Source: Lytechinus pictus
Taxonomy: Eukaryota
DNA length: 64,000 nt
Direction: 5' to 3'
Assembly (NCBI RefSeq): GCF_037042905.1
Contig: NC_087251.1
Coordinates: forward strand, 17,176,001-17,240,000
Shown piece by piece: positions 28,624 through 62,605 of this stretch. The translations under genes were made by a program, and so were the position numbers. The notes below the pieces were generated by a model. That model saw only the letters and a list, made by a program, of their open reading frames with translations. It was not told where the DNA came from and searched no databases. Every line of letters begins with the position of its first letter. Positions within the stretch are counted from its first letter, which is position 1.

Positions 28624-28822
28624 CTGGTGCTCTACCAGCAGCTTTCTGCTTGAAGTGGCTTCCCTTGATAACCTCTACATCCAGCCGCCCAGTGGTGGCA
28701 TTGTAAGCTAGACCTATCAAGATCTCGGGTACACTACCCTGACTCATTGACTGCAGAGAAGATGAACTGTTGGTGTCGGACAGATCTGAGGTACTGGAGT
28801 ATGGAGAGGAGCCATCCTTGCT
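28624..28822 (-). CDS. SYT14/16: SYT14/16-like constant exon (inter-C2 linker and start of C2B)
   Basis: [10 protein letters not shown]...[42 protein letters not shown], with the SYT14/16-typical [17 protein letters not shown] acceptor, GTAATA donor; 199 nt, phase 0 to 1. Confidence 0.96.
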
Positions 28823-31027: not shown

Positions 31028-31158
31028 CTCTACAACTATATCATCGTCATCTGATCCAACCAGAGGCAGATCATCCACCATCTCTGATTGTACAGGATCA
31101 TCATGGCCTTCTTGACCTATCGATATGTCACCTTGTTCTGCATCCTCCGCTCTCACAC
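31028..31158 (-). CDS. SYT14/16: SYT14/16-like first constant exon (acidic linker), phase-1 acceptor
   Basis: (G)VRAEDAEQGDISIGQEGHDDPVQSEMVDDLPLVGSDDDDIVVE. Pyrimidine tract plus CCAG acceptor, GTACGG donor; 131 nt, phase 1 to 0, in frame with the C2A exon. Confidence 0.85.
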
Positions 31159-31685
31159 CTGGTACAGACACAAAGAATCAGAAACAAATAGGGACATTAG
31201 AAATATTGTTATTGGAAAATGGAAAGATAACTAATTTGAATAAAAAGTTGAGAAACTGGACACAATGAATAATGGAAATTGACAGGAATAGAACAGTAAA
31301 ACAAAATCATACCATTTAATTTTTTTTTCTTTAATTCATTGATCTTCTGCTTAAAAAATGATGAGATTTGCAACTACTACCCAGACTTTATCTGGTACAC
31401 TGATAATCTATTGCAACTAGCCCTCATGACAAAGCAGCCTCTGTTGAAAATTAGTGAATCAAAACAGCAGTATTGTCATGGACTCTGGACAAACAACATA
31501 TTTGCAATTTTTCATCAGCTCAGATTTTGGGACAATCTGCGGTCCCGGTTTAAGATTTCCAACAAAGACCTTTACACTGTTCATTGTGATTTGACAGGCA
31601 CTTTCAATAGATTTACTAGTGTTGAAGAATCTGTCCTGTTGCAATTGCTACTGAGTGAAGTTTAAATCAAATATAAAAAAGTAAC

Positions 31686-31959
31686 AGTGTTGCCAATGCT
31701 GGCCTCAAGGAAAATTATTTGGCATTGGCCGTGGGATAGGTCCTCGGACCAGGCCAGCTAAGGCCAGGAAATATTGAAAAATCAGTTGTAGTGATTGTTA
31801 TCCTACAGCTTTATAGCAATGGCCTTAAAGCTGACCTCAAGCATAAATTTTGTGGATTTTGCCTTGGACCCTTGGCCTTGGGCAACCAGGCCTTGCTTTG
31901 CCATTGGCCTCGGTCTCAGACAGCCTGGCGTTGGGTTTTCAACCTTGTGCACAACACTG
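31686..31959. mobile_element. Small hAT-like MITE
   Basis: CAGTGTTG...CAACACTG termini; GGCC(T/A) subterminal repeats. Confidence 0.55.
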
Positions 31960-34900
31960 AATAACCATTTCATAATTTCGAATTTATCATATAGGCACAC
32001 ACCCACAATTTTGCCTATTCAGTGTAAACAATAGTGAACAATATTTTGTACTTAAAAATGGTGTTCATTGATGCATGGTCCTAGCACCTATATAGTTTAG
32101 AACTTCAGGAATCTTTGTAATCATGATAAGTCATATTTTCAAGAAATTAAAGTATTATTAATCATAATCTCACAAACAATCATGAAAGTTTCTTTTTCAC
32201 TGGGATACCCCGTAATCCCAAGCCTTGTACAGGGACCACCCGGTTCCAATAGGCAGTAGGTAAAATGAGGATTCCCAACAGACAATTCAAATCATCATGT
32301 ATGGGATACTAATACTTCCATACTCTTTAGAATTATAATCATTGCTACAGAGACACATACTACCTTCATGGTACCTTGGCATTTTGCTTTTATGAACTTC
32401 GATATAAATACTAGGGCAATATGAATACTATTAAGCCTAGGGCATGAAAGGTGTTCATTTATACTTCACAGATATGAAAAAAAACCAAGAAATGTGGATA
32501 GTGAGAGAATGAAGAAGATATGCATTCCCCTTTTCACCAGTTCACAAGGTATTACCTTCATATACCTTTCAGAATTGAAAAGATGTGAGGATTATATACT
32601 GGTAGATGACCTAAAACTCTATTGAACCTCGCTGTTACAACCTTCATTATTTTGTCAGTTTTTGGCATAGGTTGGGATATACAATATGTTAGGAGCAGAA
32701 TTGAACAAAAGCTCACCTTGAGAGTTTATACATGTCTATGTACCATTTGAAATGAGTGATAAAAGTATTTTTGTGTTGCTATACAATGGGAATTCTTCAG
32801 TATGGAAAACCCTCATGAATACATGTATAATTGCCTTGGTTGATAGTCCTTGGTCTCCTATTGACTTGATAATTCAAATCAATTTCATGCAAGTCAGCCA
32901 GACTAACAGCAAGACAGAAGTATTACTAAAATGCTTAGAATATTCTTTTTCCTTGTTGAAATATACATATGGGAAGCAAATGAAAAGGTGAACATAGTTT
33001 TGATTTAATAGTTTTCCTTAAACAGATCCATATGATACGACACATTGTGGAGGGAGGCGCCAATTTGTCAGAAGCTATATTAAAAGAAGCTGTTATATTG
33101 TAGTCTGCAGGCACAGACTCTGATTGAAATTTGATCAACAAGTGTGTCTCCATGCAAAGACTATCACATACAAAACTTGCTGTTTCAGAGGACCTTCAGT
33201 ACACAAGGCATGAGTAGGCTGCACATTCAGACCCTTAACTCGAGTGAAGGGTTTGCGCAACAGACCAGTTATATTGTGCCCATTTCTGGTCTCCTGAAAC
33301 CAAGAGTGCAATAATTAATAGATATGACACATAAAAACAAAAATAAATGGAGTAAGAAGTGCCTTTTAATATGGAAGCAATATGTTTGCATCCCCCTACT
33401 CCTCAACCACAAAAGAAGCTCATCACATAATAAGCATATGTCATTTGAATTAAACAAAATATTGCAATATATCCTATTTGACCCTCATGATCATCTAATC
33501 AGACCACTGTTCTAACAAGGAGACATACAGATTACTGGACAGTTACCATTATCTGGGGTGGTATTCTGAGATCTATTTTATCTCAGTTACAATAAAATAT
33601 TTTATCTCTGTTAAAATCAGTGAGATAAAATACCCTTAAAATCTCTCCGAATTGGTATTCTGGGAACCATTTTACCTTCATTTTATCTCTGTAAGACACC
33701 TAATTTTGAAGCAATATCCAATGAGAAACACTGTTTTATAGCTCTCTCATCTCATTTATCCAATGAAAATCCATTCTACCAGGAGATCTGGAGATGTGGC
33801 AAAAAGAGTGAGCTTGCTTCAATTTATTAACTTCAAATACGCTTGCACCATATGCTGGCGTGTCTTGACAGAGATTTCTTCTTTTTTTTTATTGCAATAC
33901 TCTAATCTTTTCATTACAAGCATCATTTCAAAAACAATATTAGTCAAGAAAAGCAGTAAGAAATCATTCCTAATTCTACAGAATAATGTTAAGCTAAAGT
34001 GTCACTTTCAATAGCTATATAATTTTTCTTCATTTCAATATTTGGAGCTAATTCACCTAGAAATATTTGATGAACCTCAGGAACTCTACCAGATGGAAGA
34101 AAAAAAATCAAAATTGGTCAACAAATAAAGAATTTTTTGTGAATTTTGAAAAATGCACATAAATTGGCATATTTAATGAGTTTCAAAATTCTGTGCAGAA
34201 GTTTTGAATCCCCCACCTCGTGCTATCATATAAAGCAAACAGAATTGACAATCGGACTTGAAATAATGAAGAAGAAGCATTTTGAAATTGTGGACGGACA
34301 ACAGATGACGGCAGGCGACGGACGCCACAGCATATTGCTCATCTGGCTCTTTGGGCCGGATAAGGTAAAAATGGGATGAACTACCTGAGTCAATTATTTT
34401 TACATGAATATTCATGGTATGAGACAGAACCAGACTTTGTAGGGCCTAGATTGAGTGAATTTGTGATGATCTTAGTACTTTTCTACTGCATTCGGATACA
34501 GTTTTGGGCCCAACTTTTGAGGACAAATCAACTATATCTGAATGACCTGTGCCGTTGTCACAAAAACATTGTCAGCCCAACAGAGTGCTAAAAGCAAGAC
34601 CAGTCACATCTTTCGGATTGTGAAGTCAAAACATTTTTTTTAATGTGTATAAAGTAATGCATTGTTGTAACATCAGGCATTGCTGCCACATTACCGGTTG
34701 TAACAGGGCCTCTGTTAGTGCACTGTTAACGCTAACAACGTTTATGTGCGGTCAGTACTGGTTGGTTTCAAATCAACAGACGGAGCCATTGTAAATTTAT
34801 CTTAAATGGAATGTAAGGCCGTTTAAAATCATCCTTTCTATCATTTTGAATGAAACCCCTTGTGATCGGGCAATTTAAGAGGGTGCTGAGAATAGTAAGG

Positions 34901-36742
34901 TATGCAACACAATGAATGATGGGGGATGGTTGAGCAGATCAAGTAACCCAACTGAATCAATCCAAGAATAAAGGAAAGTCTGAATAAGATTTTACAACCT
35001 GGCCATCTATGGATGGATTTCAAGAAGAACTTGTGAGGTGATCAGCATAGCTATAAGCATGAAAGGCAGGACAATTTACAGCGCAATATAGATCTATACA
35101 TTTTTTTTGTGATTTTGTCAAACTGGGAAAGTATTCAAAGACATTGGACAGGTAAAGGGTATAAGTATTTTGAAAAATCATTTTCAATATTTTCACCAGC
35201 AGCAGAAACATCCAACTGCCTGTCTTGTCCACAATAATAATAAACTGGGTCACAATACATACCAAGCATGGTACAAGAGAATTATGTCCAAGTGCATTGT
35301 AATAATTATTTATTTGACACTACTTAACAAAAATAGCCAAAACACATCGCTAAATAAGAAATTATTCATGACTTGCCTTGTATCAACTTGTACCAAATTT
35401 ATACAATATTTTTGCAAATAATTCAGAAAGGACAACAGCTTTAAGACATCGATAGATGGAAAATTCATCAATGACTTGCCTTATCAAACTTGTACTCTAT
35501 TATATTTAATATATTTTTTTGAATAATAAAGAAAGGACAACAGCTAATAACACATCCATGTATAGATAATGTACCAAAGGAATTACTTGCCAGTTGCCAA
35601 ACATGCACCCTATTTACAAATTATTGTTGTTTTAGATACAAAATGAAGTTCATGTATTATAATCAAGCACAATATGGCACATAGCTCTTCCAAAGTAATC
35701 TTATTCTGAACTCGGAGTGAAAACATTAAGTCCCCTCACTCAAAATGCATGCCTGGTTCCTTAACTAACTATAGAAATTTACAGACACAATGAAGACTAG
35801 GTCTTTAATTAAATTTGAATCCTGCGTTTTGGGTAGTTCTACTAATATAATTAACATAAAAAAATAACATGTACAACTTTGAAATAACTTCCACATTTCT
35901 TTTGTAAATTCATCCTTGAAAAAGTATCCAAAAAAGGTCGGCCATATTTTGTGATAGAGACCTACGCGTTGAATATATCATGGACCCTATTAAGCTGGGG
36001 TCCATTCCTATATTAACAGGGTGAGCTTTTCACTGTTAAGGTATGTACCAACAAACCTCAAAATCCCAATGCCCCAGGCATCTGTCGGTTTACATGAAGC
36101 TTGCATATGACAATAAATGTCACACAGAACACTGTAAAATGTCACACTCAGTCAATCATCAGTCAAGGGAAACAATCCTTTCAATGTCAGCACATGGATT
36201 AGTCTATGTATGCACAATGCTAATTACCACTCATTATGAATCCAAATATGTATCATAGACTTTTTAATATGTTTCAAAAAAATATTTTTAACTTGCTAAG
36301 CTCAACCCTTTATACATTTGCAATGCAACTGACAGTCTCATCAACATTATATGCAATTCAATAGAGCAGCAATGTTTGATTTTTTACATTATATATGTTG
36401 GTTTTTTTCATTTACCCTTTGAACAAGCCAAAGGCACAAATGAGCAAGGTTTTGGATGTCCTGTTGACTAGCCCCAATGCCCACTGTATTGAAATGTTTT
36501 GGTACTGCTTTTCATTTTCCCTATTTGTGCTGCTATAAAGAAATGTGGTTGACTGCAAGGTGACCTTGCAATAATAATTTTGAAATCAATGAAAACATTC
36601 AATAGATTTTTGGATACTGAAATAACATATAAATCCTATTTTCTATTGAGCATAAGCAGGAATAAACAGGAAATATGAATTTTGAGGGTTGCATGGCCCC
36701 TTAAAAAAATGAAATGAATTGCCCCATTGTAAATAAACCTAC

Positions 36743-37010
36743 CTACTTCACTAACCAATGACTCATTTGAGACAAGCTCATTGGCATTCTCACCGACTGC
36801 AGACTCTAAATCAACCTTACTATTAGCGATTGATACAACGTCCGATTCATTGGCGCTATGGGCAACACTGGGCTCTGAGTAGTGGCCCTCGTCTTCATCA
36901 ATGTTTTCATTATGCTCTTTGACTTCAGAAGGTTCCCTTGCAGGTCTGGGAACTAATCCTATCAGGGACGAAAACCCTGGGCAAAACTTCAGGCACGGTA
37001 AACACGTCAT
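36743..37010 (-). CDS. SYT14/16: Candidate alternative first coding exon V1 (MTCLPCLKFCPGF...SNESLVSEV)
   Basis: ATG with an in-frame TGA 15 nt upstream; acidic, protein-like 89 codons; ends GTA G|GTAGGT, a phase-1 donor (268 nt = 89x3+1). Confidence 0.7.
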
Positions 37011-38509
37011 TTTCTTTTCAATTCACATATGTCTTCTACTAGAAATGTTTCAGAGAAAGTGGGTTAATTCTGACCGTCTCAATCTGACACAAAATGACTC
37101 CGAGTTTGGACCAGATCAGCAGATATATTGCCAAGAGTTCACAGGAAGCTTATTAGCAATTGTCATAAATACTTGTCAACTTTTTTAGATTCAAACATGC
37201 ACAAGACAGTAGTGGGCAAGGTCATGCCATGAGTAACAATTTATCAAAAAATCAATGAAATCCAGAAATTGAAGAAAACTTCAAGGATGAAAGTAAGGTG
37301 CCCAGTGTAGAACAGACAGATATAAATTCTTTGAGTCAACTTCTTTATTAGAACCGAAGAAGCCACTGATTTCCAGCATATAGTCCTTTAAACATGGTTT
37401 GTGATTCACATGTACAGCAAGCAGGTGAAAGATTAAATGTCTTCAGTAATTCTTTCCCTCAGGCTAAAGTATTTGAGCAAACAATAAAACATCTTTCTAC
37501 GTTTTTTAATACCAATGTAGCTGCGATCACTAAAGAGACCTGGGTTGGGTTTGGTCTCAGGCAGATGATTCTGTAGAATCTCAGGAACTTCAGAGGTGCA
37601 AAGTCCAGAGATCCCCCGTCTTTCTCAGTGAATACAAAATTGTTGATGTTTCTGACTTCAAACAAGGACAGAAAAGAATAGGACAGTGCAGCTTCAGAGC
37701 GCAAGATGATATGCAACCGCTAGTAATAATGTCAAACTCTATCCAATCAGCATATCAAAATAAGAAATACTGGTAGTTGTATAGTCTGATGCAGTTTAAG
37801 AATATGCAAGTGTGGTTAACATGTTGAGCGCACTTGTTATGGGAGACACCACACTCCCCCTGCATGGGACACATCAATTCACAATATAACAAGGGGGAAA
37901 AAAACAGGATTAAATCTGGTTTTAAAATGCAGGTTTGGGGCTGGATTGGGAATAGTACAGTTCAGTGAATATTGTGAAGAGAACACACATATATACAGCA
38001 ATGGATGGGACAATGTATGCAAGAAGGGGCCAGAGTGATTCTTGGTGGACTGGGTATTCATAATGCAGCTCCTCTATTCATACTGTTCCAAGGTAAATAA
38101 TGCCCATAAGCTGTAGACAGTGTGATAGGCATAAAACTTACTTAGCTGTAAACATCACGAGAATGGAAGACCTTCCATGGAAGAACCAATCAAAGCAATC
38201 AAGAATTTTTTAAATGTCCATATGTTTTTGCTATAATATAAAAAAATTGAAAATGGCAGCTAAAACTTTTAAATGAACAAGTTAGTACATACTGTATTAG
38301 CCATAATTTTTGAGAAAAGATGGTAGGCTTTTTCAAAAGTGCTAAAAGTCTACTCTGCTAGCTTTCCAGTAGTCACAGTGTCCAGTCAATTAGTTTTCAT
38401 GCCAATACCAATTTACACATCTTGTCAACAGACATATTGGTGAGAATTGTATACCTAATGGTTCAAAGTCATTGGACTTATCCATTAATTCATAACACCC
38501 CTTTTGGGT

Positions 38510-38902
38510 CAGGGTTCCCAGCTTTTCAAGAAAACAAAGTTCCCTGATTTTTCCCTGATGAATTTTAACAATTCCCTGATAATTATTTAAACCCATTCCC
38601 AGTTTCGCATGTTTTCTAAGCTGTTGCAGTGAATTACATGTATTTTCAGTATAAAAACAATAATTTAAAACTAATTAGTACCTCCATAACCAGTCATTCA
38701 ATGGATGTTGTTTTGATATGCAACATAATATAACAGAGTCTGATTGACTACCGTGCTTTCGACTTTTTGGCTGATAAAAATTCCCTGATTTTTCCCTCAT
38801 TTGAGGCATTTCCCTGATTTGAGGTATTTTTTAATCAAATTTCCCTGACTGGAAAAAGGTGAAACGATTTTCCCTGATTTCTCTGATGGGCTGGGAACCC
38901 TG
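38510..38902. mobile_element. MITE with 13-bp TIR CAGGGTTCCCAGC and 6-bp TSD TTGGGT
   Basis: TTGGGT|CAGGGTTCCCAGC ... GCTGGGAACCCTG|TTGGGT; TTCCCTGA subterminal repeats. Confidence 0.88.
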
Positions 38903-40198: not shown

Positions 40199-42360
40199 GG
40201 GATCAGGACAACTACCCACCGGACAATTACCCCCTGGACAACTACCCCCGGACAATTACCCCCTGAGGACAATTACCCCCGAGGACAATTACCCCCGAGG
40301 ACAATTACCCGAGGACAATTACCCCCGGACAACTACCCCCCCCGGACAATTACCCCCCCCCGGACAACTACCCCCCGGACAATTACCCCCCTGGACAATT
40401 ACCCCCAGGACAAGTACCCCCGAGGACAATTACCTCCTGACAATTAACCCCGAGGACAATTACCACCAGGAACAATTAAACCCAAAATAAATATTAAAAT
40501 CAGATCAGTTGGAATCAGAGATATTCAGCATTTGTGATTATTATGACTAATTGTGTTCAATTGTTCTATGAAAACTTAGTATGAGGGCCAGGGGAGCGTT
40601 TCATCAACATTTTTGTCCGACATGTTGTCAGATCTGACATCTTTCCTTGATTTTGATTGGCTGATAAGCAATGTTACTATGGTAACTGTCGGATAAAATA
40701 GGACTTGTCGGATAAAACGTCTGACAAGTCCTTTCATGAAACGCTCCCCAGTTTACACATTTTCTGATGTATATATGCATAGCCAAACGGGAGGTTTCGG
40801 GTTGCAACCCCCCCCCAAATTTTTCATGATGCAGATGGCGCCGCTAAACAAAACAAAAAAAGGAAAAAAGAAAAAAGTGAGAGAACAGGAGAGAGAACAG
40901 GAGAAAGAGCAATATAAAGAGAAAGAAAAAGTTATTAACGTAAGATAAAGTAGAAAATATTTCGAGAACCTGTGCCACTGACCAAAACTTACAATGCGTA
41001 CCGCTTAATATTAACATTGATGCTGGAGAGAAGGGGGATTTTTTGGGGGTAATTGTCCAGGGGGTAATTGTCCTTGGGGGTAATTGTCCGGGGGGGGGGG
41101 GGGGTAATTGTCCTCGGGGGTTATTGTCCAGGGGTAATTGTCCAGGGGATAACTGTCCTCGGGGGTTATTGTGCGGGGGGTAATTGTCCAGGGGCTTATT
41201 GTCCTCGGGAGTAATTGTCCGGGGGGTAATTGTCCGGGGGGTAATTGTCCAGGGGGTAATTGTCCGGGGGGTAATTGTCCTTGGGGGGTAATTGTCCTTG
41301 GGGGTAATTGTCCGGGGGGGGGGGGGTAATTGTCCTCGGGGGTTATTGTCCAGGGGATAACTGCCCTCGGGAGTTATTGTGCGGGGGGTAATTGTCCAGG
41401 GGGTTATTGTCCTCGGGAGTAATTGTCCGGGGGGAAATTGTCCGGGAGGAAATTGTCCAGGGGGTAATTGTCCGGGGAGTAGTTGTCCGGGGGGTAATTG
41501 TCTAGGGGGTAGTTGTCCGGGGGGTAACTTTCCTCGGGGGTTATTGTCCGGGAGGTTATTGTCCGGGGGTTAGTTGTCCGGGGGGTAGTTGTCCGGGGGG
41601 TAATTGTCCGGGGGGGGGGGGGGGGTAATTGTCCTGGGGGTAATTGTCCGGGGGGAAATTGTCCGGGAGGAAATTGTCCAGGGGGTAATTGTCCGGGGAG
41701 TAGTTGTCCGGGGGGTAATTGTCTAGGGGGTAGTTGTCCGGGGGGTAACTTTCCTCGGGGGTTATTGTCCGGGAGGTTATTGTCCGGGGGTTAGTTGTCC
41801 GGGGGGTAGTTGTCCGGGGGGTAATTGTCCGGGGGGGGGGGGGGGGGGGGGGTAATTGTCCTGGGGGTAATTGTCCGGGGGGTAATTGTCCAGGGGGTAG
41901 TTGTCCGGGGGTAATTGTCCGGGGGGTAATTGTCCAGGGGGTAATTGTCCGGGGGCTAATTGTCCGGGGGGTTATTGTCCAGGGGGTAATTGTCCAGGGG
42001 GTAATTGTCCGGGGGGTAATTGTCCGGGGGGTAATTGTCCGGGGGGTAGTTGTCCGGGGGAGTAATTGTCCGGGGGGTAATTGTCCAGGGGGTAATTGTC
42101 CTCGGGAGTAATTGTCCGGGGGGGTAATTGTCCTGGGGGGGGGGTAATTGTCCGGGGGTAGTTGTCCGGGGGGTAGTTGTCCGGGGGGTAATTGTCCGGG
42201 GGGTAATTGTCCGGGCGGTAATTGTCCTTGGGGTGTAATTGTCCTTGGGGGGTAATTGTCCAGGGGGTAGTTGTCCGGGGGGGTAATTGTCCTCGGGGGG
42301 TAATTGTCCGGGGGTAGTTGTCCGGGAGGTTATAGTCCGGGGGTAATTGTCCTAGAACCC
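40199..42360. mobile_element. Foldback (TU/Puppy-like) element with inverted arms of ~15-bp tandem repeats
   Basis: (GGACAATTACCCCCC)n at ~40206-40480 and its reverse complement at ~41045-42352. TTTGTGAC is duplicated at 40191-40198 and 42361-42368. Confidence 0.88.
40591..40750. mobile_element. Short palindromic MITE nested in the foldback element
   Basis: GGGGAGCGTTTCAT ... ATGAAACGCTCCCC. Confidence 0.85.
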
Positions 42361-43993
42361 TTTGTGACCATAGGTCATAGGGACTACTTATCCGTCATGT
42401 ACTAAAAAATCTTGAAAGCATTATACTACACACACGGAATTTGCAATGTCATGAATCTCGTCGTCAATATTCGTGATTTGGTCTATATATTTGCGATGTC
42501 CCTTCAAGCCACCATAGTTTATAAGTAAATTTTTGTAATAGTTAGGAAAAATTTACCCTTCATTAACTCAGTTTCAAATGACTAAAATTACTCATATTTA
42601 CAATTTCTTATAATCTTATCAGCTCTTTTACAAGAATTACTGTGAATCTGTATTATTTTTTCTTTTTTATTTACAAACCTCTAGTAAACCCATGCATTTC
42701 AGCCATTGGATGCCATATGTGTAATTTCAGAAAGAAATAAACCATGGATATAAATTTCAAACATTCATCATCACAATTTCCCATTTTATAACAAAATTTC
42801 TGAGAAGTAAACAATGGAAAATGAACATTCTGAAGTAAGCTTTACAACAGAAATTTTAAAAATTCTTTTTTTGGGCAATTTATTTTTATTTTTGATTTCA
42901 AGCCAAGTCTTATTCAAACAACATGTAATCAATTGTTCACTATTAAGCACAATACCCGGAGTCTCAAACATTTTTGTCCATTGTCTATACTTTTGATGAA
43001 ATATGCTATTTTGTTTTGCTTGATTTGATTGAAATGATAAAATCTTCAAATAGCAGACAAATGGCTGTATCACACATTACTGTTATCATCACAAGCTGTT
43101 ATTTTTGCATACACATTTGTTTTTGCACAGCAGTTAAGATCAGGAAAATGGTACACATTCCTTGCAGAAATGTGGGGGGGGGGTCTTTTTATTATTTGTC
43201 AACCATTCACTTTGACTATTTTTGCCATCATAAATGTTCTTTATTTTTCTGTGTGTCTCATTAATCCAGAGTTTTTAATACCATATTAAAATACTCCTCA
43301 TTAGGTGGTTTCAAACCGCCTTGATCACAAGAATCCCTGTTGAATTATGGGAAGTTTTTCAGGCTAAAAAATAGCTGTGAAATATTCCCCATTCACACCA
43401 CCCCGTAACAGTTACGAGCATGCACACTATGCACACTATGGTCTGATAAGTAAGCAAGGCACAAGATTCAAAATCACTAGCTCAGCAGCCACCCACGGCA
43501 TCCGTGCCCAACTACACGCTGGGCTTTAAGTTCCCAGAATTTGCTTTCACACTGCCAAAACGGATTTGAAAGTGAGCTGCTGGCCATGCAAAAAATCATA
43601 AATAGATGGTTATTTTTATGTTTCTATACAGTTTTGGAAAAAAGTGCCCTCGTCTCTGCAGACCCTGCAAAATACCTGTGACCTTAGAAAAATCCCCATG
43701 AAAGTTCTCATAATTTTGACAAGTACAAAAGTAATATTATGTCAACTGTTTATTGTGCCTTTAATACTTGATAATACAAATCAAATGCAATATACAATAA
43801 TATAATAATTATTAGTCATTGATAAATTATGTAAATTAAGTTATACTTATGATAAAACACAATAAAATAAGCAATTATTTCATTAGATAGATGGAGGAAT
43901 ACAGAGGATGAAGGAGACTAAAAGAAAAGGAATGGGAGAGAAAGAGAGAAGGATACCCTTTCATGTATTCCCTCTCAAATATATAGTCTCTCA

Positions 43994-44161
43994 GGGCCGT
44001 TTCATAAAGCTGTTTGTAAGTTAAGAGCAACTTTAAGAACGACTGGTGAACCTTTCTTACGCACTTAACCATCACCAGTGAATATACCATTTACCACAAG
44101 AAAGGATCACCAGTCATTCTTAAAGTCACTCTTAACTTACGAACAGCTTTATGAAACACCC
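43994..44161. mobile_element. Short palindromic MITE
   Basis: GTTTCATAAAGCTGTTTGTAAGTTAAGAG ... CTCTTAACTTACGAACAGCTTTATGAAAC. Confidence 0.85.
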
Positions 44162-44199
44162 ACCACTGAATGAAAATCAGAGTGGGATTCTGCAATAAA

Positions 44200-44460
44200 A
44201 AGAGGTGACATGACAAGAGTACAAATATCTCTATGGTTATATGATACAATATCTGAACTTTTCTGTCTGAGAAATACTAGGAAAACATGTCCATGTGGTA
44301 ATTCCTCAGAGCTTGAGAAAAGTTTTTCATGTCTTGATGTGCCTAAAATTTTCTTTGCCAACAGATTGATAGATGTGTGGAACAGTCTCCCAGAAGAAGT
44401 CGTTACTGCTCGATCAGTGAATGCATTCAAGAATAGACTTCATAAAGCATGATTTTCAAG
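44200..44460 (+). mobile_element. CR1-type LINE ORF2 C-terminal remnant
   Basis: FFANRLIDVWNSLPEEVVTARSVNAFKNRL matches the CR1 C-terminal pattern FFSxRVVxxWNxLPxxVVxAxSxxxFKxRLD. Confidence 0.8.
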
Positions 44461-45910
44461 TGTATTGCTTTTGCTGTCCATGATACCACTGTCGTCCCTC
44501 CCTGCCAACGCAAGTAGTGCGTCTGTGTATTTTTATCTGAAGGAGAGCAGCAATCCCCTACGGAAATGTAAGCGTGCTGCATGCTAGTAACTAGTTAGCA
44601 ACTAGCTGGTGGCCTGCTTAATATAGCTGGTGGCTTGCTTTATATAGCTGGTGGCCCGCTTAATATAGCTGGTAGTCCGCCAAATGAGTGATTTTAAGCT
44701 AGCAAACAGTACATGCTCACTAAAAGATCGCTTGATTTTTTTTCTCTGCATGCCTATTAACAAGCTTATTAAGCTCGTTACTAGCTAGCCGCAAGCTAGC
44801 GACTAGCATGCGGCTAGCTTGAAATTTGTGTGAGGGATCTCTAATTTGATCGATGAACAGGCATAGTCTTACTACATCCTTTGAGTAAAGTAAAGTAAGT
44901 AAAATAAATGATGTTTGTGAATTTAGAAACAGTCTGCACTGATGTCTGCCAATAGTGCCTAGAATCATGGACCTATATTTAGAGACCTGTTTGTGTAGAA
45001 CTATGGCTTATTTAGAATATTGGCTAAGTAAAAAAAGTACTATTTGAAAAGGATAATATGCGCAAAGTGCTGACACTATTTTATGTGCTGGAGATAATCC
45101 ATGGCTTCACAGTATGTGACCTCGAATTCTTGGTGTAACATGAAATGGTAGAAAATGAACCTTTTGTATAACCAAATGAATTTTTGGTATCCTTGTTAAA
45201 CTTTGAAACTATTTGAATTCACTGATGTGCGCAATAGATGAAAGAGGGCATAATAAACAATGAGGTTTCATTTTTACTTTCAGTTTAAATTGTAATAAAA
45301 GGGCAATCCAGGCTGACTGAAAAATATATATCTAAACAAAATACAGTAAAATTCACTGAGGAAAACGTCAGAGATATTCTAAGGGATAGGGCCAGAAATC
45401 ACAGATGAATGCAAAATGTCTGGCGAACCATGAAATAAAGCCATCCAATATAATAATTATCTATTCCCCAAAAGTAAAGTTATTAAGTAAATTGTGTTAT
45501 ATATCATCATCAGTTAATATAGCCCCACTTAATAAAACAGTCTTGATCAGAGTAATGAGTGTAACATATAGCAATTCAGTAATTTTTCTAGTGATTTTTA
45601 GTTTTATAAAGAAGCTTATTAGATATACATCAGATTTTGGTGCTTTGTGCAATCCAGGGGAGGGGGGGTCACTGCCTCTGAAGAGTGGACAACATCTGCA
45701 ACAACAACAACAAAAAAACACAGAAAAAGGGGTGTTTATTGCGAGTAGGTGCGGAATGTGAATAGAGGGTAAAAAAGGCAAAAAAATGAAGAAAAAAAAG
45801 CCCCCTAAATCATGATGGTCTAAACCTTGAAGACCAAAATACAGATCTAATGCAACTTCAAAACACCCTATACAGATAATGATTATTTGAACTCAATATC
45901 AAGAATTTAC

Positions 45911-46085
45911 CAGTTGACCTTGATCTTGACAAATCGGTGCAGTTTAATAGCTGTTCATTACTTGACACGATTAAACATGATTCAATGTTTCCAGCAGAAC
46001 TCAGGCTTTTCTTTTCAACTAGACATTGGTCCTCATCACCTTCAAAGTCACCACAGCAACATAGCAAACCAGATCTGGCTACCAT
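45911..46085 (-). CDS. SYT14/16: Candidate alternative first coding exon V2 (MVARSGLLCCCGDFEGDEDQCLV...SRST)
   Basis: ATCATGG start with an in-frame TGA 9 nt upstream; CCC cluster; ends ACT G|GTAAAT, a phase-1 donor (175 nt = 58x3+1). Confidence 0.62.
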
Positions 46086-47653
46086 GATGGTTCAGCCAAG
46101 AATCCTCAAGAATCATAAAAGTTGAAGGAAACTAGTATCATGAAGCAAATAGATTCATTCAACAAGTTGACCACTTGATTTTCAAAAAGACTCAACTCCC
46201 ATTGCTTGATAAAGTTTCAAATCACATCAATCCAAAGAAATCCAAGAAAGTAAATATCCAGTGTGCTTTTGGTGATATGCAGCACCCACATATAAGCTTT
46301 CTGTACATAACCAAACTAGCTTTAGAGAACTTCAATTCTCCATGATGACTCTTTTCAAGGGATTCTTCTGATCAGCAGAAATTTAGATCTTGACTCACTT
46401 GAAACTCTCCTCAAATTGTACTCCAATTTCAATATCCAATAGCTTTGTGTAACTGCTATAAATTCACAGAGAATGACCCACACTAAAATCTGTACATTAC
46501 CAAGAAAATCAGGTGGCCCTCTTATTCTATTGCAGAATCTCTGTCATTGATGTGCAGGTAACACAAGACTATTATTCAATCAACAATGAAGTACCAGTGT
46601 ATTGTAATGATGCCAGCAACTTTTTTAGGCCCCCATTCAGTTACATAATAGTATAGAACATGAATTAAACCTACCAACACTTGCTTCGTTCAGTCGTGGA
46701 TTCCTAGTTGGAATAAAATTTCATTAAGCAGGGTTAAAATTCCATAGATTTTTATCTCATCACGACCCATTGTTACGGGAGAAACTCCGACTAGTTAATC
46801 ATGACCTTCTTAGGGGCCATCATGAGGGGTCAGAGTAATTTCTAGAAGTGGTCACGGGAGAAACTCCGACTAGTTAATCATGACCTTCTTAGGGGCCATC
46901 ATGAGGGGCCAGAGTAATTTCTAGAAGTGGTAGCGCCATGTATGTAACTCTTCCGATGTTCCGCATGATATCTGTAATTTAGTATAGAGAACTAGACCGA
47001 GGAAGTTTTAAACAAGGTCGTAAGGAAGGTCGTAAGGTAGGTCATAGATAGATACTCCCGAGTTCAGCTGGTACGCACGCCCATGGGCAATTTACTCCGA
47101 TCGGCTATTCATGATTACGAGATACTCCTGTAAACAAGTGGACTTCACCTCTGGCGGTCTCGTCTGCATCATAGCAGCAGTGCTACTGAATTTGAAAATA
47201 ACTAAAAGTGAACTATTGACGAAAAAAACATTATTCATGTGGTAATAAAATACCAGGTTGATTGACCCTAACTCTTTGCAAGCTGAATTAATTTTTGGGG
47301 GATAATGATGACAAACGTTTCCATGTTATTTTCTTTGATTCAAGATTTCCATATTGCACCATTGATACTTATTATCATTGTACAGAAGTTGTGCATGAAC
47401 TATTGCCTTTTATTAGCTTATCTAATTTGAATGTAGGGGAGAAATTTAAATAGTACGATACATGTTGAATTTAATTGTAAGAATGTGCAAGATTGCAACA
47501 TATCAGCGTGCAAAGGGCTAAAAGTCCTATATGAGCTAAGACTTGATTACTTTTGTTTCAAAGTTTCATGAACTAGATCCATAAACTTTTCTTAAAAGTT
47601 TTGATGGCATTTCCATAAATACCCCCAAATGGACAAAGTTCATTTGCTCTAAA

Positions 47654-48403
47654 CAGGGGTGGCAAATCATAGTTGAAAGTGGGGGGCACAGGGGAAAAGG
47701 GGCACCTTTTCTTTTGAAAAGGGCACTATCTCAAAAAAAAGAAAAATGATCTAGTAGCGTAATGGGCCAAAATTTTGAGGGGGCTAGATATGTCTTATCA
47801 CGTTAATTTATAAGAAGTTTCGAGCGAGCCAAAATTTTGACATTTTTATAACGAAAATCAAATTTTGTGATAGATTTTGACAATATTCAGAAAATAATAT
47901 TATATTTCACCCTTCTCTCTTTCCTTTTCTTTTTCTCGGTCATGAAAAATTTATATTATATCTACCCCACTCACATGACTCATGAAGCTTGAGACACATA
48001 GGATTATCCTTTCAAGTTTTGTAGTACTTTAGCATATGAAAATGAGAATATTGTTTTCTGTTTCAAAGGGGCACTCGTTAACACATAAAATGGGTCCTTC
48101 TCAGGTGAAAGGGGCACACAACGCATTCGTGTGGGGCACTTTTCTTGGGTAAAAAGGGGAACTGATACGAGATAGGGAACTTACAAGAACATGTTCGCGA
48201 GGGGGTATTTTTGCTTTAAAAATTGGCATTTACACGAGAAAGGGCACTTGGTAACACCTAAAATGGGTCATCCTCAAGTGAAAGGGGCACAGTACACATT
48301 CGTGAAGGGGGCATTTTTTTGCGTAAAAAGGGCACTTTTTCAGTGCTTCAAAAAGTGGGGGGGGGGCACTGTGCACCCCGGCTACCAAGGAACATCGCCC
48401 CAG
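47654..48403. mobile_element. hAT-like MITE with an 8-bp TSD
   Basis: GCTCTAAA|CAGGGGTG ... CGCCCCAG|GCCCTAAA; many AAGGGGCAC subterminal motifs. Confidence 0.7.
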
Positions 48404-48641
48404 GCCCTAAATGATCTTTGGCCTTAAAAATGTGACCTGAAACTCAAGCAAGGTGATCAGTGATACTTGATTACTCTTATGTCTAAGTTTCATGAACTAC
48501 CTTGGTTAAGATTTTGATTTTGGTTCCCAAACATGGTGAAAAGTTCATTGACCCTAAATGACCTTTCAACTTAGTATGTTTAGTATCATGAAATAGGTTC
48601 ATATACTTTCTAAGTTATGATGAAAGTTCTTTTAAACTTAA

Positions 48642-51265
48642 CTCTTACTCTGCCAGGCCCAATACCCCTCTACTGCCAGGGATATTCGAGGGAACCCTAA
48701 ATTGACCGAAATGTGAGCAGCGACTGATTTTAAAACGGTCATAATTCTTTACCCGTACGTTGTATAATAAAACCTTCTACACATGAAATGATGCATGGTT
48801 CATGGGCTTTATGGTCGTGTTATTATCTTTCATATTTGCGTTTGGAAAAATGGAGAAAAGATGTAATATTTTACATTGTTTTTTTTTCAATAAGTAAAAC
48901 CTGGAAAATTATGATTTCATGAACATTTCAAAGAGTAAATAACCTGAGGAATTGTAGAGATACCAAGAAATTAAGAAGATAAAATGAAAGTTCAATGTTT
49001 ACCCTTTCAAATGACGTATCTATTAATGAAATTGAACAAAAAGAAATAACGAAAAATAATGCTCTTTTGAATAAAATACTATTTTGCTATTCAAGTTATT
49101 TCCTCTGAAGTACGATAAAGCGACCTGTTCCAAAAAAGGGCATTGTCGCCGATCAAGTGACCAATCACAGCACAGCTGCGATCCCCACGCAAACATACAT
49201 AATAATATATTAGAGCCATGTATCTTCAAAGTGCGGCCAACCGTACCCTTTCATTTGTGTAGTCTTCAAAATAAGACTCTGTAATTTTTTTTTATTCGTA
49301 GTGTAACAAACAAAGTTATTGCCAGTCAGAAGGAGACAAAATATAAAAGAACTAAAGATGATATATTGAAATATATATAGAGGGGTCGGACAGTTTCAAT
49401 ACTTACAAGTTTGGGGTATAAAATCCCACAAAATAATATGGGCGTTCTTGGCAAAGTGCACAGAAGTAAGAAAAAAAGGGTTTATTTTTCGTGAATCAAA
49501 GAAGAGGGAATGCAAATCAGTTACAAACAAAAAAATCAATACAAATTTTCAAAAAGAAAATAGGCCTATTTGTTCTGTATTACTGGTCTGACCAAAGTAG
49601 CCACCTGTTAACATTCTACGTAACTACATTCTTTTGGTCATGCCACCAAGTCATGAACAATAGATGCCCAGACTCTCTTTCATGAGGAATCTCTAATCCG
49701 CGCTCCCTTCTGACCTATTATCTAGGAGAGTAATTTGGCACAGGATGTTCATAGAAATCGGGGCTCACGCGCGTCTTTTGATTTGACATTTGAATACTTT
49801 CAAAGGTTCCGGTATTGATTTCTTATGGGTGACCCAGGTAAAGAGAAAATAATTTTTTATATGCAGAAAAATCCTGCATCCGCCCAGGGCCTCCCCAGCT
49901 CGTAGCACTATCCGTGGTAAAAGAAATAATTTGTTCAGATAACATAGTGTACAATAATATGCGTGGTATAAAGAAATGTAATATTCAACCCGTTATCATC
50001 GTTATCATTTTCATTTCTACTCTCTAAAGTCGTTTTAAAATCCCCTTGATAGTGACGTCAATGATGCAGCAACTAACAGGTCGGTCTGATCGGTTTTGTT
50101 AATGTATCCCTTTCTTTCTTTTCCTCAAAACATCTTGAGACGAATAAAGCGGTATTATCGGCCGTTTTAATTCTCACATGTATTTGTTTTGCTTCTTCCT
50201 ATTTTATTCGAGGAGAATATTGAACGATTCATATTTTTGTGAGAAGTTTGAATATGATATTGATAAGCATAACAATGTCAATCATTCTTTTTTTATGGTT
50301 TGGGCTATAAAAACACCAACGAATATGAACCGTTATTTACCTGATCTTAAGTTTATGAAGAGAGAGTTTGTCTGCAGAAGGAATGCAATTGATATGATTA
50401 CAACAATTATTTTTGAATAATAATCATAATGATGATGATGATTCTGATGGCAATAACATTAATAATAAGAAGGTGAAGGAGAATAATAATGATAATAATA
50501 GCAATAACAATAATGATAATAATGATTACGATAATAGTAATACTAATAATGAAAATAATAATAACAATAATAAATGAATAAATAAATAATGTGTGATGAT
50601 TGCAGTGCGATGAGAGTTGGAAATGACAGCTTTCTTTACTCATATATTTAAACCAAAACAATTTCGTGAAAATGCTAAAAAAACAAAGTATAAGACCTTT
50701 CCCCTACCCCCCAAAAATCTCCCCCAAACCGTGCACATTTGCAGGCAGAAAAAAGCCTTGACACAAGAATACCACCATACCGGCCTGCAAAAGAACCGAT
50801 CGATAGCTCATGAATATTCATAAAACAATAGCGAATGGGCGAGTAGCGTTGGGTGAGAGACATCGTACCGCTCTGTCATTGGTCAATTCTGAGCTGAATG
50901 CCTTCGCACACTCGCCTTTGCTCTGCCCATAGAAGTACGTGTATTGCTACACACAACCTTTATATCACACGTGTCTATAGGGGAAATCTTGATTCAGATC
51001 GCGGCAATATCCGAAATCAACTCTTCAAAATAATGATGCAAAAATGCCATTTTACTCAAAAAATGTCTATGTGAACCACTATTTTTTATGTAACAAAATC
51101 AATTGTGAATTCCTTGCCAATATAACAACATAAAAAACACAGAATATAGTGTTGATTTTCTGGCTGTAAAATTGGTTAAACAAAAAAAAGTTACTTGGGC
51201 AACTATAGCTGCCAGCGGCACTAGAGGGCTATGGGCAACTATAGCTGCCAATGGCTCTTAAAGAG
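48642..51265. mobile_element. 2.6-kb non-autonomous piggyBac-like element (TTAA TSD)
   Basis: AAAC TTAA|CTCTT...AAGAG|TTAA CCTTGG. Removing it restores the AAACTTAACCTxxGTTxAGATT seen intact in the 7974-8932 copy. No transposase ORF. Confidence 0.75.
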
Positions 51266-53256
51266 TTAACCTTGGTTGAGATTTCAATGACGCCACTACC
51301 CTCGCCATCGGAAAAGCGGCACCTATGTGTAAGCAAGACAAAAACCCGGAGCATCTTGGTCAGAGTAGGGTCAGAGGAACTTACACGACCACTGTCCAGA
51401 CAGGCACTACTCTGACCTTACTCCAAAAGGGCTTCCTCCGACCGTTCCTTCGATCTAACTACGATCAAAACATCCTCCGTCTGAACGAGGCTATGAAGAG
51501 AACGTGCCTGTTTACTAAGTGATTCAAGTTTGCAGGTTTCTTTCCCTAATTCCTATGAACCAAGTGACAAGGTATTTCTTTTCACTTGTGAGTAAAAAAG
51601 AAACTACAATACTTAGAATTCAGTTGCATACATTAGTTGTTGCTAGGTATGGCAAAGTCTTAAATTAAATTTCTAGGAAAGTTTCTAGTGAAACGTGCCC
51701 CCCCCCCCCAATCGACTGGCAAAAAAAAATGGGGAACAGGAGAAAAAGAGGGAGTTTATGAAGGTTTGCACATACCCCCCAAAAAAAAAAAAATTGGTTG
51801 GCCAAAAAAAATGGGGAACAGGAGAAAAAGAGGGAGAAAGAAAGAGAAACGTGGAGAAGAAGAAATTTTTGTATATTATATTATGTTATATTACATTATA
51901 TATATTACACAAGATGTATTTTTTCATAACTCTATGAATCATAATTTGCTTAAAATTTTTGTTTGTGTTCATCATTCCTGGTACTCACATTGTCTCTTTA
52001 ATGAGATATATAATCCTGTTGTACTGAAACATGCCGTTTTCAAGTCAATAAACACCAAATATATTTTCTCACACTTCGACTTATCATTGTTTAATAATTT
52101 ATGTAGTGACATATGCTTCTTTTTCATGACTTCTTAAAGTGATTACCCCCTTTTAAGGTCTGAATATAAAACGTTGCTTAGTGAATTGGTGAGATATGTC
52201 TGCTCTTCATTAATTTCTAAACAGTACTTGAAATTGTTGCTTTTCCTGGTCTGAAAATAAAAAATTTTCAGCTTGCACTTCGCATCATTTGGTTGTGTTT
52301 CACGCTCGCATTATTTTAGTGAGACAGGTATAAATCATGAGTACAAAAATTTGCTTATAATGTCCCTTTTTTACGTCTGAATATAAAAAAAATTCAGCTC
52401 ACGCTCCGCTTTCTCATTATTTGATTAGTAAGATACATATCCAATAATGGAACAGTCCTTAAAATGCCTCTACTATGTCAGTATCTGATAATATGCCATT
52501 CCGTAGTTCCATTCTGCACATGATCAGAAGATTCTGCGCATGATCAGAAGAGGGTCATTGGCCTAAAAGTGACACGGTGGTTCAATATTTAATGAGATAA
52601 GCACCAACTTTGCACCTTTGATGTCTTGATTATTCATATATTCTTTTGAATTGTAATTTTCATTAGATCCACAAAAAACAATACGTCCACTAGCGACTGG
52701 TATATCACAGTTCGCCAAGTACATTGCATAACAACAGGCTAATATGCATTCAAAGTGCAGCTAGTATACCTTCATAGAGTGTTCATTGGTGTGCTACTTT
52801 AGTCATCTGGACTATTCGATTTCTTCATCCTGTTAAGTAAGGCATGCTTACATAATATCTTGCTTTGAAATCTGCCTATCATAATGAAAGAGATGAAAGG
52901 TCATTTGACCAAAATTGCCCATGAAGTATGAAATGGTCTATTGGATGCGCTTTGCGCGCCCATCACTAAGTGAGTCAAAATGTTTGCCGGTGCCCCCCAA
53001 TGCCGTGACCCAAGGTACGCCACTGGTATCTCCATTAAATGTGACAGCTCTATACCATTGCTGAGGATCACCCCCCCCCCACACACACACACACATGAAA
53101 CCCTTGAAAATTCTTTCAAATTGTCCACTTGAAAAATTATTACAATATGGCCTGCAGTATGAGGTGCACCTCATAAAGATCAAAATACAAGAATACTTAC
53201 TAAATTATTTTCTAAAATATTGATCACTACAAGAAGAGCAGACAATGACTACTCAC

Positions 53257-53653
53257 CTCTCCCTATTCTATCAGAAAACAGTTCATATTTTCTGTTTTTG
53301 CTATATTTTGAACGTTTCCCTCGTGGCAAGTAGACATCGGAATTGCTCGAAAAATCACTATCTGGTGATGAATAGGTGCTTGGGGGAAGCAAACGTATAA
53401 CAGGTATCTGACTTGTAGAATAACTCCTGACTTGCATTTGGGTCCCTCTAAAGTTACCTGCTCTTGCTCTAGGATCATAAAGTCTATTAGGAACTGACTT
53501 CCTATGTATTTTTTTGTACATTTGAGGTTTATTTTCAATCAGCAGGGCCGATGTTTCGGAGTCTGTAACATCTGTTGTAGAGTAAGCGATGTCAATAACC
53601 TTCCCTTCAGTTGTCTTTCGACAGCAAAAGCAACATGACATCTTGCCTCCCAT
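53257..53653 (-). CDS. SYT14/16: Candidate alternative first coding exon V3 (MGGKMSCCFCCRK...DRIGR)
   Basis: AACATGG start; MGxxxS followed by CCFCC; 132 codons; ends AGA G|GTGAGT, a consensus phase-1 donor (397 nt = 132x3+1). Confidence 0.75.
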
Positions 53654-55516
53654 GTTATAAGACTGGCTGTATAGGATCAAGCTTTTAAAAAAATATATAC
53701 TTGCGGATTGAGAAAATCAAGCTGAAGATGTCAAATCAGATGCACAGTCATTGTCCTTCATCACAAAAGCTTTATCCACAGTGATATAGCAGATACATTT
53801 CAAGATAGAGCCCCCTCATTTTGCAATCTACATACCTATGCTTCAACTAGTTTAAGAAGGCAAAACAGTCTTGAAAACCACATCGCAAGGTGTTTTTTTC
53901 CACACTGGTTTGGAAGACTAAAATTAGTTCAAGAACCACTTGGAGCGTTCCCATAGTTACACATTAATCTGGTTTCCTGTCAACTGGTTTCCACTAACTG
54001 AAATGAGAAGAGGGTTAGTAGGACACTGAACAAAACCACTGGCATCAAATCTAAATCCTCCAACATCACTTTTCCATGTACAGTTCTACTACGTGCTATA
54101 ACCAATCCAAAGCATCTGATAAATAGAGATCTCTTTCTGCAAACATGTCTGATTCATGCCAGACAAGACAATAATAAACACTCCGCACATTCTTTGTTGG
54201 ATACGAAGAAGGCTTGAATGAATGGCCAAATTTCCCTGGTCAACCAAACCTATCACAATTATGGCTTCCACAGGTTGTCATAGTCCAAGGAAGTTGAATC
54301 AAGCTAGGCTGTCTGGTAACTTTAAAAGATTGTACCTGGTTGTCTGTCAGTTTGACTTCATTCATACTTGGTCTCCTGTGGTCTATACCAAAGTGTTTCA
54401 GAGAGTGTAGACCATGGTTGTACCATAGAGCTATAGCTCTATGGTTGTAGAAAGCAAACAGATTAAATCCTTTAAACCAACTTAACGGACAATGGACATC
54501 TACCTGTGCATGGAGGTTCCAAACCTCAAGGATCTCTTCATGGATTACACAAAAACAGGGAAATTACAACTATCCTTGTAGTTACGTCATTCCCTTTTTC
54601 AGGGTCATTAGTACATTTGACTATCAATGGATTTTCATACATATGGGTGACATACCATATCTTGTAGCAATGGCAGGAAAACTGAACAGGTCAGTAAAAG
54701 TGACAAGTGCCCTGCATAACCCATCCCCCCCCAAAAAAAAAAAAGTTTGAATAGGCTATATACTCATAGACACCATCCTCATCTACTTCCATTTAACTAG
54801 TTTAGTGGAAACAAATTATAAAGTGGAAACAAGTTCAGGGATTCTTATTGTCTTTTCTTTTAATACTTCTATAATTTGCTGTGTTTATTTTTTTACTGCC
54901 ATGATGCTTTATGATTATACTGAAGGTTTGTATTGTATGAATATGAATAAACACCTCTGTTACACACATGTATGTATAGAAAGACGAGAATAAATGCCAA
55001 TGTTGCTAATGTCTCATGTACACCTAATTCCTGCATACACTGCATATATCATATGCAGTGTATATCATTTCAAGAGGCCTACATATCACATTGCAGTGAA
55101 TGTGATTATATATTTATATATTTATGTATCAGAATCAGATGTCATGTAGTTGCAATGTACTATTCTCCAAAATCTAACTTCCATGTCTTTCTTAGGTTAA
55201 GAAATGAAGCCAATCTTATATACAGCCAGTTTAGATTTGACTTCAATTGGGCAAAATATATCTGGTTGCTTTTATTCATACAAGGATATATATCAACTGA
55301 CATTTTATCAAAGTAGAATCTTATTTCCCATCTGACATTTATATTACTATTAAGAAATAAACATGCATCAATGCATCTAAATTTCATAAAGTTTGCAAGT
55401 TTAATGCATCAAAGTTTCATCAAGTTTGTAAGTCTTTTTATTTAAAGAAAATATTAAATGCAAGTTTGTTACAGAGAAAGTAATGAATGAAGTTTAACAT
55501 GCAGTCACTGACATAC

Positions 55517-56060
55517 CATAATAACCTCTAGGTGAATAATGTTGAGTAAGCTTTATCTTCCTCTGGTGGTTTTTGTCTCTCGTTGCAACATTAAGAATTT
55601 CTGAGCCACTCCTAGGTAGGAGCTTATACCGATGGTCATCACTAATCCGTCTGGTCACGGGAAGACTCTTAGAACTGGTGATGTCGCTGAGGTCAGAGTA
55701 TGACGTCCCTTCGCTCAAGCAATGTTCGCTGTCAGTGTTATACAGGGGAGATGGTGGAAGGTGCAGGACTTGTCCTTCCTGGATAGTCTCAAGGTCTTCT
55801 GCACCTTCTGGGGTATCTATCCCTGTGTCATTATAGTCATCAACATGTTCACTGGAATACTGATGTTTCTGAGACAGCATGCGTTCTCTAGCATCACCAT
55901 CACCACCATCATGATCATCATAAGGTCTACTCGATTGATCCCTGTCCGCTTCATTCAACATGCTCTCTTTCTCAGAAGGGTCCGCGACGGTTTCGTCCTT
56001 GTTTGGACGCAAGGAGCTGATGAAGCTTCCTATGAACTGGGTGAATTCATCAAAAGCCAT
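55517..56060 (-). CDS. SYT14/16: Candidate alternative first (or cassette) coding exon V4 (MAFDEFTQFIGSFISSLRP...SPRGYY)
   Basis: GCCATGG Kozak context; 181 codons of acidic, Ser-rich sequence; ends TAT G|GTATGT, a phase-1 donor (544 nt = 181x3+1). A TTCTTCAG acceptor at 56082-56081 also fits phase 1. Confidence 0.75.

Positions 56061-62304: not shown

Positions 62305-62605
<301 letters not shown>

Follow-up and report, generated by a model that had tools for sequence, protein, structure and literature searches.

How can one gene supply several unrelated N-termini to a single pair of C2 domains? The question is raised by a 64-kb stretch of the Lytechinus pictus genome (C7:17176001-17240000; hereafter the window, to whose positions all coordinates refer unless stated otherwise), in which a gene of the synaptotagmin-14/16 group lies on the minus strand. 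A preliminary description of this DNA proposed that four open reading frames (ORFs) upstream of the constant exons act as interchangeable first exons of one C2A-C2B constant region, an arrangement that its author did not know to have been described for the family. We modelled the gene, compared its N-termini with those of other echinoderms and of vertebrates, and mapped RNA data on part of the window. The locus is very probably the single L. pictus orthologue of the synaptotagmin-14/16 group, made up of a constant body and at least five mutually exclusive 5' modules. This architecture is real but was already known: all five types of N-terminus are present in the RefSeq records of two sister species, and three of them were printed in 2010.

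The constant body and its 5' modules

The exon that encodes C2A is 100% identical to the L. pictus protein XP_054758786.1, annotated as 'synaptotagmin-14-like', and a protein search with this exon returned 34 proteins with E ≤ 0.001 among 285 candidates. Echinoderm-type proteins account for 32 of the 34; 31 of these are named synaptotagmin-14/16 or synaptotagmin-14/16-like by their source and one is the Logan sequence P0008. The top vertebrate representatives that were looked up are SYT14 (P0061) and SYT16 (P0198 and P0077), a classification by name. The S. purpuratus orthologue is classed as Syt16 in Craxton 2010 (BMC Genomics 11:37). On the minus strand, the gene extends over at least 26.4 kb to 67.3 kb (window-equivalent).

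A search over GT-AG boundaries yielded one unique model that translates exactly to the 440-residue L. pictus RefSeq protein P0001, and its six exons are the first coding exon V1 followed by constant exons 1 to 5 (Table 1). The 351-residue constant part given in the preliminary description was borne out by this model; it is encoded by five exons, from 31158 down to 26398, and runs from an acidic linker through C2A and a Ser-rich linker to C2B. The tandem C2A-C2B arrangement at the C-terminus was recognised by Pfam (C2, E 3e-29, two stretches on P0001) and by Syt1 C2AB (2r83), which aligns to P0001 residues 143-255 and 292-437. At the five positions of the Syt1 alignment that we take to be the Ca2+ ligands, C2A carries D, S, G, E and K and C2B carries A, D, N, K and E. 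Such incomplete ligand sets in both C2 domains fit a Ca2+-independent type, as had been supposed from the start.

The exon starting at 31158 (acceptor ...tgtaccag/GTG, the slash marking the splice site) takes one base from upstream and is thus entered in phase 1. Upstream of it lie the four ORFs, here named V1 to V4, each of which opens with an ATG and closes with a single G, the first base of a GGT codon divided by the splice, all of them having phase-1 donors that match 31158. On reading the minus strand, the coordinates and the phase-1 donors (36743, 45911, 53257 and 55517), as well as the acceptor, proved to be exact as first given. The claim that the four segments are mutually unrelated also held: they are not tandem paralogues (best pairwise E 0.17, all-against-all BLASTP), and Pfam assigned no family to V1-V4 or to the transmembrane (TM) fragment described below.

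Sequence alone provides modest evidence for these exons, and it is homology that settles their more-than-chance status. V1 serves as first exon in P0001 (100%), in L. variegatus isoform X5 (P0035) and in S. purpuratus P0005. Homologues of V2 are L. variegatus X6 (P0037) and S. purpuratus P0040, those of V3 are L. variegatus X4 (P0003) and S. purpuratus P0007 and P0048, and those of V4 are L. variegatus X1 (P0004), S. purpuratus P0041 and P0042, and P0052 from another urchin. When protein fragments derived from L. pictus transcripts and spanning the junction of V4 with constant exon 1 were sought, P0052 was the only match of similar length; it was rejected, being a genomic prediction from that other urchin which reads into the intron.

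The L. variegatus isoforms X1 to X6 start with V4, TM, TM, V3, V1 and V2, in that order, and in all six the N-terminal part directly adjoins VRAEDAEQ, with which the exon at 31158 begins. When searched onto the window by tblastn, the L. variegatus N-termini land at the V1-V4 coordinates. The same five N-terminal classes recur among eight S. purpuratus sequences, again with a single segment joined to the constant exon. Several 5' coding exons per shared acceptor, one per isoform, are therefore shown by the gene models of two relatives, which upholds the proposal of interchangeable first exons on one C2A-C2B constant region. Two V segments in one protein were found in none of the 14 echinoid sequences (six from L. 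variegatus and eight from S. purpuratus), nor in L. pictus P0001, which, as far as gene models go, speaks against splicing of the segments in series.

A comparison with the congener had been proposed as a check, and there the V ORFs are conserved, with 93-95% identity to L. variegatus; identity to S. purpuratus is 48-80%, and the constant part reaches 99% and 93%, respectively. The N-termini are conserved yet evolving faster than the constant body, as the aligned residues show.

A fifth N-terminus, missed in the preliminary description whose four first exons otherwise stand, is a multi-exon TM branch further upstream on the same strand. Its TM exons were found 1.7-3.3 kb past the window end, and residues 7-64 of the L. 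pictus protein P0036 comprise a TM helix and, after it, a Cys-rich juxtamembrane motif (LPLAALIFLL...MYLNRIACFANCGGCPC). Within the window this branch has a cassette exon (60131-60027) that matches L. variegatus X2 and X3 and the 169-residue L. pictus model P0036 at 100% (tblastn, with the splice sites read) and is absent from S. purpuratus P0006. The last exon of the TM branch likewise closes with a phase-1 donor. In L. pictus RefSeq, the TM N-terminus occurs only as a 169-residue protein (P0036 and P0039) whose reading frame passes the donor at 60027 and continues into the intron, so that the annotated gene seems to be divided or cut short.

A tblastn search with every retrieved echinoderm N-terminus revealed no new conserved first exon in the window. 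Low-E matches of P0013 at 19.4-19.8 kb and 62.3-62.6 kb were rejected as Ser-rich low-complexity sequence against microsatellite DNA.

Table 1. Exons of the L. pictus synaptotagmin-14/16 gene in transcription order, with identities to the proteins of two other urchins (for S. purpuratus over the aligned residues).
Feature	Position	Strand	Basis or remark	Identity, L. variegatus	Identity, S. purpuratus
TM-branch exon	C7:17243124-17243297 (window-equivalent 67124-67297)	-	encodes P0036 residues 7-64		
TM-branch exon	C7:17241736-17241897 (window-equivalent 65736-65897)	-	genome search		
TM-branch cassette exon (GEEFLYVHDV...EMTG)	60027..60131	-	105 nt, phase 1 to phase 1		
Probable 5' untranslated region of V4 transcripts	56061..56714	-	record 5 of contig set X1 colinear to 56714; transcription start site unmapped		
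V4, first coding exon (MAFDEFTQFIGSF...; no early Cys)	56060-55517	-	181 codons + G; donor G/GTATGT	172/181	142/178
V3, first coding exon (MGGKMSCCFCC...)	53653-53257	-	132 codons + G; donor G/GTGAGT	125/132	77/131
V2, first coding exon (MVARSGLLCCCG...; Cys cluster)	46085-45911	-	58 codons + G; donor G/GTAAAT	54/58	20/42
V1, first coding exon (MTCLPCLKFCPG...)	37010-36743	-	89 codons + G; donor G/GTAGGT	83/89	52/71
Constant exon 1 (acidic linker, with the common phase-1 acceptor at 31158)	31028..31158	-	sequence; P0001 model; isoforms continue VRAEDAEQ / VRTDDVEQ		
Constant exon 2 (C2A)	30278..30688	-	P0001 model; tblastn; 100% identity to XP_054758786.1		
Constant exon 3 (Ser-rich linker + C2B start)	28624..28822	-	P0001 model; tblastn		
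Constant exon 4 (C2B)	27264..27379	-	P0001 model; tblastn		
Constant exon 5 (C2B end ...RWHALLES + stop codon)	26398..26595	-	P0001 model; tblastn		
Constant part (exons 1-5)	31158 down to 26398	-	351 residues	348/350	324/350

RNA in L. pictus and the rival explanations

RNA was mapped on 42500-62300, a stretch that contains V2, V3, V4 and the cassette exon and has the acceptor at 31158 outside it. The material consisted of three raw stranded rRNA-depleted RNA runs chosen by species label (X19, X20 and X21) and one contig set (X1), which together represent at most four samples from two studies, of unknown tissue. Most mapped reads are partial repeat matches, the share running on into unlike sequence being 0.9.

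These data support V2 and V4. The bin that holds V2 (45805-46465) has a depth of 3.2-4.3 in X19, X20 and X21, and every first mate lies on the plus strand, as expected for RNA of the minus strand. Depth reaches 5-11 at 45931 and 46004 and falls to 0 in the next upstream bin, leaving V2 as an isolated island. The same two positions are polymorphic, with an A>G change in X19 and X20 that is not in X21 and a G>A change in X21 only; this is ordinary allelic variation between animals. For V4, record 5 of contig set X1 (1230 nt, depth 26.9, minus strand) fits 56714-55515 and then continues for 27 letters unlike the intron. The break coincides with the predicted V4 donor, the overrun of 2 nt arising because the intron and constant exon 1 both begin with GT. 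V4 has depth 0 in X19-21; the data hint at usage that differs between samples, V2 being the only module seen in those runs and V4 having the highest contig depth among the modules in X1. The mapped reads gave no listed molecule starts. The V donors are not among the 24 of 738 loose ends listed.

Several observations weigh against the five-module architecture as far as L. pictus itself is concerned. Its RefSeq set holds only the V1 isoform and the 169-residue TM fragment, and the junction to 31158 is documented in this species only for V1 (P0001); no join of V2, V3 or V4 to 31158 was seen in the mapping, which covered 42500-62300. An indexed run search on 45900-55899 gave no run recorded as RNA, and contig set X1 is RNA by guess only and contains colinear intronic pieces. 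Depth on V3 is 0-0.42 in X19-21, and the sole X1 contig there (53541-53814, depth 5.3) is no deeper than the X1 intron contigs, so that these data give no evidence of V3 expression in L. pictus. The cassette exon has a depth of about 0 in X19-21, and an X1 contig (59757-60307) is colinear across both of its splice sites. No V-to-V joint is among the 15 of 146 joints listed, which does not establish its absence from the reads, and the evidence from the relatives' XP_ isoforms is at the level of gene models. Across echinoderm classes the likeness is weak for the V1-like (E 0.18) and V3-like (E 0.024) exons, and the interpretation of the N-termini as lipid anchors, discussed below, is drawn from consensus motifs.

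If the V segments were internal exons spliced in series into one long transcript from the distal TM promoter, it would account for all modules lying on one strand in one locus and for the frame that stays open over the 38 codons preceding the V4 ATG, and the joints that were seen are a listed 15 of 146. We consider this very improbable in view of the 14 echinoid isoforms, none of which has two V segments. The candidate acceptor upstream of V3 (tatacag/C) is in phase 2 and is unfit for phase-1 donors, the V4 contig follows the genome without a break through the 654 nt before its ATG, and V2 is an island with depth 0 both in the upstream bin and on the cassette. Even less credible is a chance origin of the V ORFs, or their assignment to other genes or repeats in a long first intron. 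It is true that this intron is full of repeats and that phase-1 GT dinucleotides are common: a count of ATG-ORFs with 58 or more residues in 31159-64000 gave 22 on the minus strand, 12 with some phase-1 GT and five with a G/GTR-type donor, compared with 29, 12 and two on the plus strand as a control. The five minus-strand ORFs with such a donor are V1-V4 and an unsupported ORF at 34415. What refutes a chance origin is that all four V exons have orthologues at the N-termini of synaptotagmin-14/16 isoforms in two other urchins; further points against it are that none of V1-V4 belongs to a Pfam family and that V2 and V4 are supported by RNA. The ORF at 34415-34176 (minus strand, 80 residues from its ATG, phase-1 G/GTR donor) has no homologue at any isoform N-terminus and illustrates the level reached by chance.

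A less sweeping alternative accepts the architecture as ancestral and supposes that at least one L. pictus module, V3 being the least supported, is a silent relic, so that fewer than five N-termini are used. The low V3 depth in the three runs, its background-level X1 contig and the RefSeq set of one V1 isoform and one TM fragment would be expected in that case. The V3 ORF, ATG and donor are nevertheless intact, and the exon retains 125 of 132 residues identical to L. variegatus and 77 of 131 to S. purpuratus; with at most four samples of unknown tissue, a neural or stage-specific form would easily be missed. We regard a silent module as improbable, if less so than serial splicing or chance, and retain the interpretation of at least five separate modules that share one acceptor.

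Predicted anchors and precedents

Along the direction of transcription the modules follow one another as TM (with the optional 105-nt cassette at 60131-60027), V4, V3, V2 and V1. In the mechanism that we propose, each would have its own promoter. V1-V4 would act as first exons, having a donor but no used acceptor, and because of this a transcript from any module would splice its donor straight to 31158 and skip the downstream V exons. The modules may in this way supply one constant body with different membrane anchors, and the different anchors may lead to different subcellular or tissue destinations. By consensus motif rules, the TM module would contribute a TM helix with a palmitoylated juxtamembrane Cys cluster, V3 (MGGKMSCC...) a myristoyl and a palmitoyl group, and V1 and V2 a palmitoyl group only, and V4 would provide an amphipathic helix.

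The cysteines of V1 (Cys3, Cys6 and Cys10) suggest a palmitoylation-type start. The consensus for N-terminal dual acylation is Met-Gly, then Ser, Thr or Cys at position 6 and following Cys residues. V3 fits this motif in having a Met-Gly start, an appropriate residue at position 6 and then Cys residues, and related starts occur elsewhere: MGGKMSCCCC in two urchins, MGKAGSLCCCC and MGKKSSLCCCC in sea stars and MGCLSCC in a crinoid. The motif suggests myristoylation together with palmitoylation. For the putative amphipathic start of V4, a hydrophobic moment of 0.53 was calculated from the 14-mer of L. pictus, a value that 3 of 2000 shuffles attained.

How far these classes of N-terminus extend is indicated by isoform sets from sea stars, from crinoids and from a brittle star. 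Sea stars have the TM class, as do one brittle star and one crinoid; starts of the MGK..CCCC or MGCLSCC kind occur in sea stars and in a crinoid, and an MCWKxLSLCPPFG class in two sea stars. An acidic class with a hydrophobic-faced opening (MAFxRF / MxLDxLTxW / MPLDDxFS) occurs in a brittle star, sea stars and crinoids; in the alignment of this V4 class, only the first ~20 residues are common across echinoderm classes. V2-type starts were seen in urchins only. When foreign N-termini were searched onto the window by tblastn, those of Amphiura (56060-55896, E 8e-4) and Patiria (56054-55749, E 0.005) matched V4, and one of Patiria matched V3 (53653-53519, E 0.024). Orthology of the V exons across echinoderm classes is plausible but weakly supported by these alignments.

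From these observations a broader picture can be drawn, which we put forward as tentative and rather less probable than its opposite: a conserved anchor switch, in which one echinoderm Syt14/16 gene carries at least four to five promoter-linked anchor modules that predate the split of the echinoderm classes and send the body to different compartments or cell types, the duality of TM and TM-less starts being older than the vertebrate SYT14/SYT16 duplication. If this is true, a Ca2+-independent C2A-C2B body would be sent to different compartments or cell types by the choice of module. The function of Syt14/16 is poorly understood, and a single-copy invertebrate orthologue with five N-termini is a convenient test system in which the role of the N-terminus in location and cell type, and the replacement of a TM helix by lipid anchors, could be addressed. 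The L. pictus annotation, which under-represents the gene, could also be revised to show a locus longer than 41 kb that has five or more 5' modules.

The variable 5' exons of clustered protocadherins and UGT1A are many tandem paralogues that encode the same domain type. The locus resembles these systems in that 5' exons with their own starts are each spliced to one first constant exon, with downstream variable exons skipped; it is unlike them in having four unrelated single exons and one multi-exon module, which encode short anchoring or linker regions. In plectin and the Kv-channel-interacting proteins (KChIP), unrelated alternative first exons retarget one constant body, the KChIP anchors being myristoyl, palmitoyl or TM-like. 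These cases provide the better, and functionally the nearest, analogy, although they concern other protein families and the anchoring proposed here is predicted from motifs. Syt XIV and Strep14 were reportedly described by Fukuda in 2003.

N-terminal variants of this family had in fact been described before. Craxton 2010 (BMC Genomics 11:37) reports that TM-less N-terminal variants are backed by transcript evidence both in S. purpuratus and in two species of Ciona. The alignment in Additional file 30 of that paper contains S. purpuratus Syt16var1, which is of the TM type, Syt16var2 (MVAKLFLLCCDG...), of the V2 type, and Syt16var3 (...PGFSSLIGFAPRSVRE...), of the V1 type, all of which join GVRTDDVEQ or SVRTDDVEQ. 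These variants and the RefSeq sets belong to the orthologous gene, with the same constant region and junction residue. Compared with the locus described here, the paper has three of the five N-termini (V1, V2 and TM types) and contains no discussion of an array or of anchors; our literature search likewise found no paper that treats Syt14/16 N-terminal variants as an array or as anchors.

The vertebrate and Ciona Syt16/Syt14 genes likewise alternate a TM start with TM-less starts on one C2A-C2B body, according to Craxton 2010, and differ in that fewer alternatives are documented per gene. In that paper vertebrate Syt16 occurs both with TM and without it, and TM-less forms are given for human SYT14; the absence of a TM helix from SYT16, as first stated, is no more than half true. 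Among the proteins we compared, TM-less starts are found in goose SYT14 isoform X2, marsupial SYT16 and fish proteins (MAFF...), and a TM start in fish SYT16. A simple partition of an ancestral array between vertebrate SYT14 (TM) and SYT16 (no TM) was rejected because TM and TM-less starts are each found in both genes. The V4-type start has no supported homology to the TM-less starts of vertebrate SYT14 and SYT16, hhalign of the first 60 residues giving probabilities of 0.4-0.8% and E values of 0.07-0.17.

Other features of the window

In the mapped stretch, pile-ups of partly fitting RNA reads, with depth up to 96, occur at 43822-44482, 47127-47787 and 48449-49109. They carry non-canonical joints, for example from 47589 to 48540 in 378-453 reads per run, and look like transcripts of a multi-copy repeat family and not of the gene. 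Neither Rfam, the pile-up regions included, nor ARAGORN gave any match on the whole window.

The intron between V2 and V1 contains two arrays of the same 15-bp unit in opposite orientation, at 40205-40478 (about 18 copies of CAGGACAATTACCCC) and 41045-42352 (about 87 copies of GGGGGTAATTGTCCG). These arrays raise the GC content to 0.495 and give rise, in several frames, to long 'PGQLPP' ORFs. The intron that separates constant exons 3 and 4 contains, at 27916-28262, a tandem repeat with a 63-bp unit in 5.5 copies. A microsatellite, (ATG)n with about 100 copies, occupies 62306-62604 and is, together with the region at 19.4-19.8 kb, the source of the spurious Ser-rich tblastn matches. The composition profile of 1-26000 shows a strong negative GC skew at 18-22 kb.

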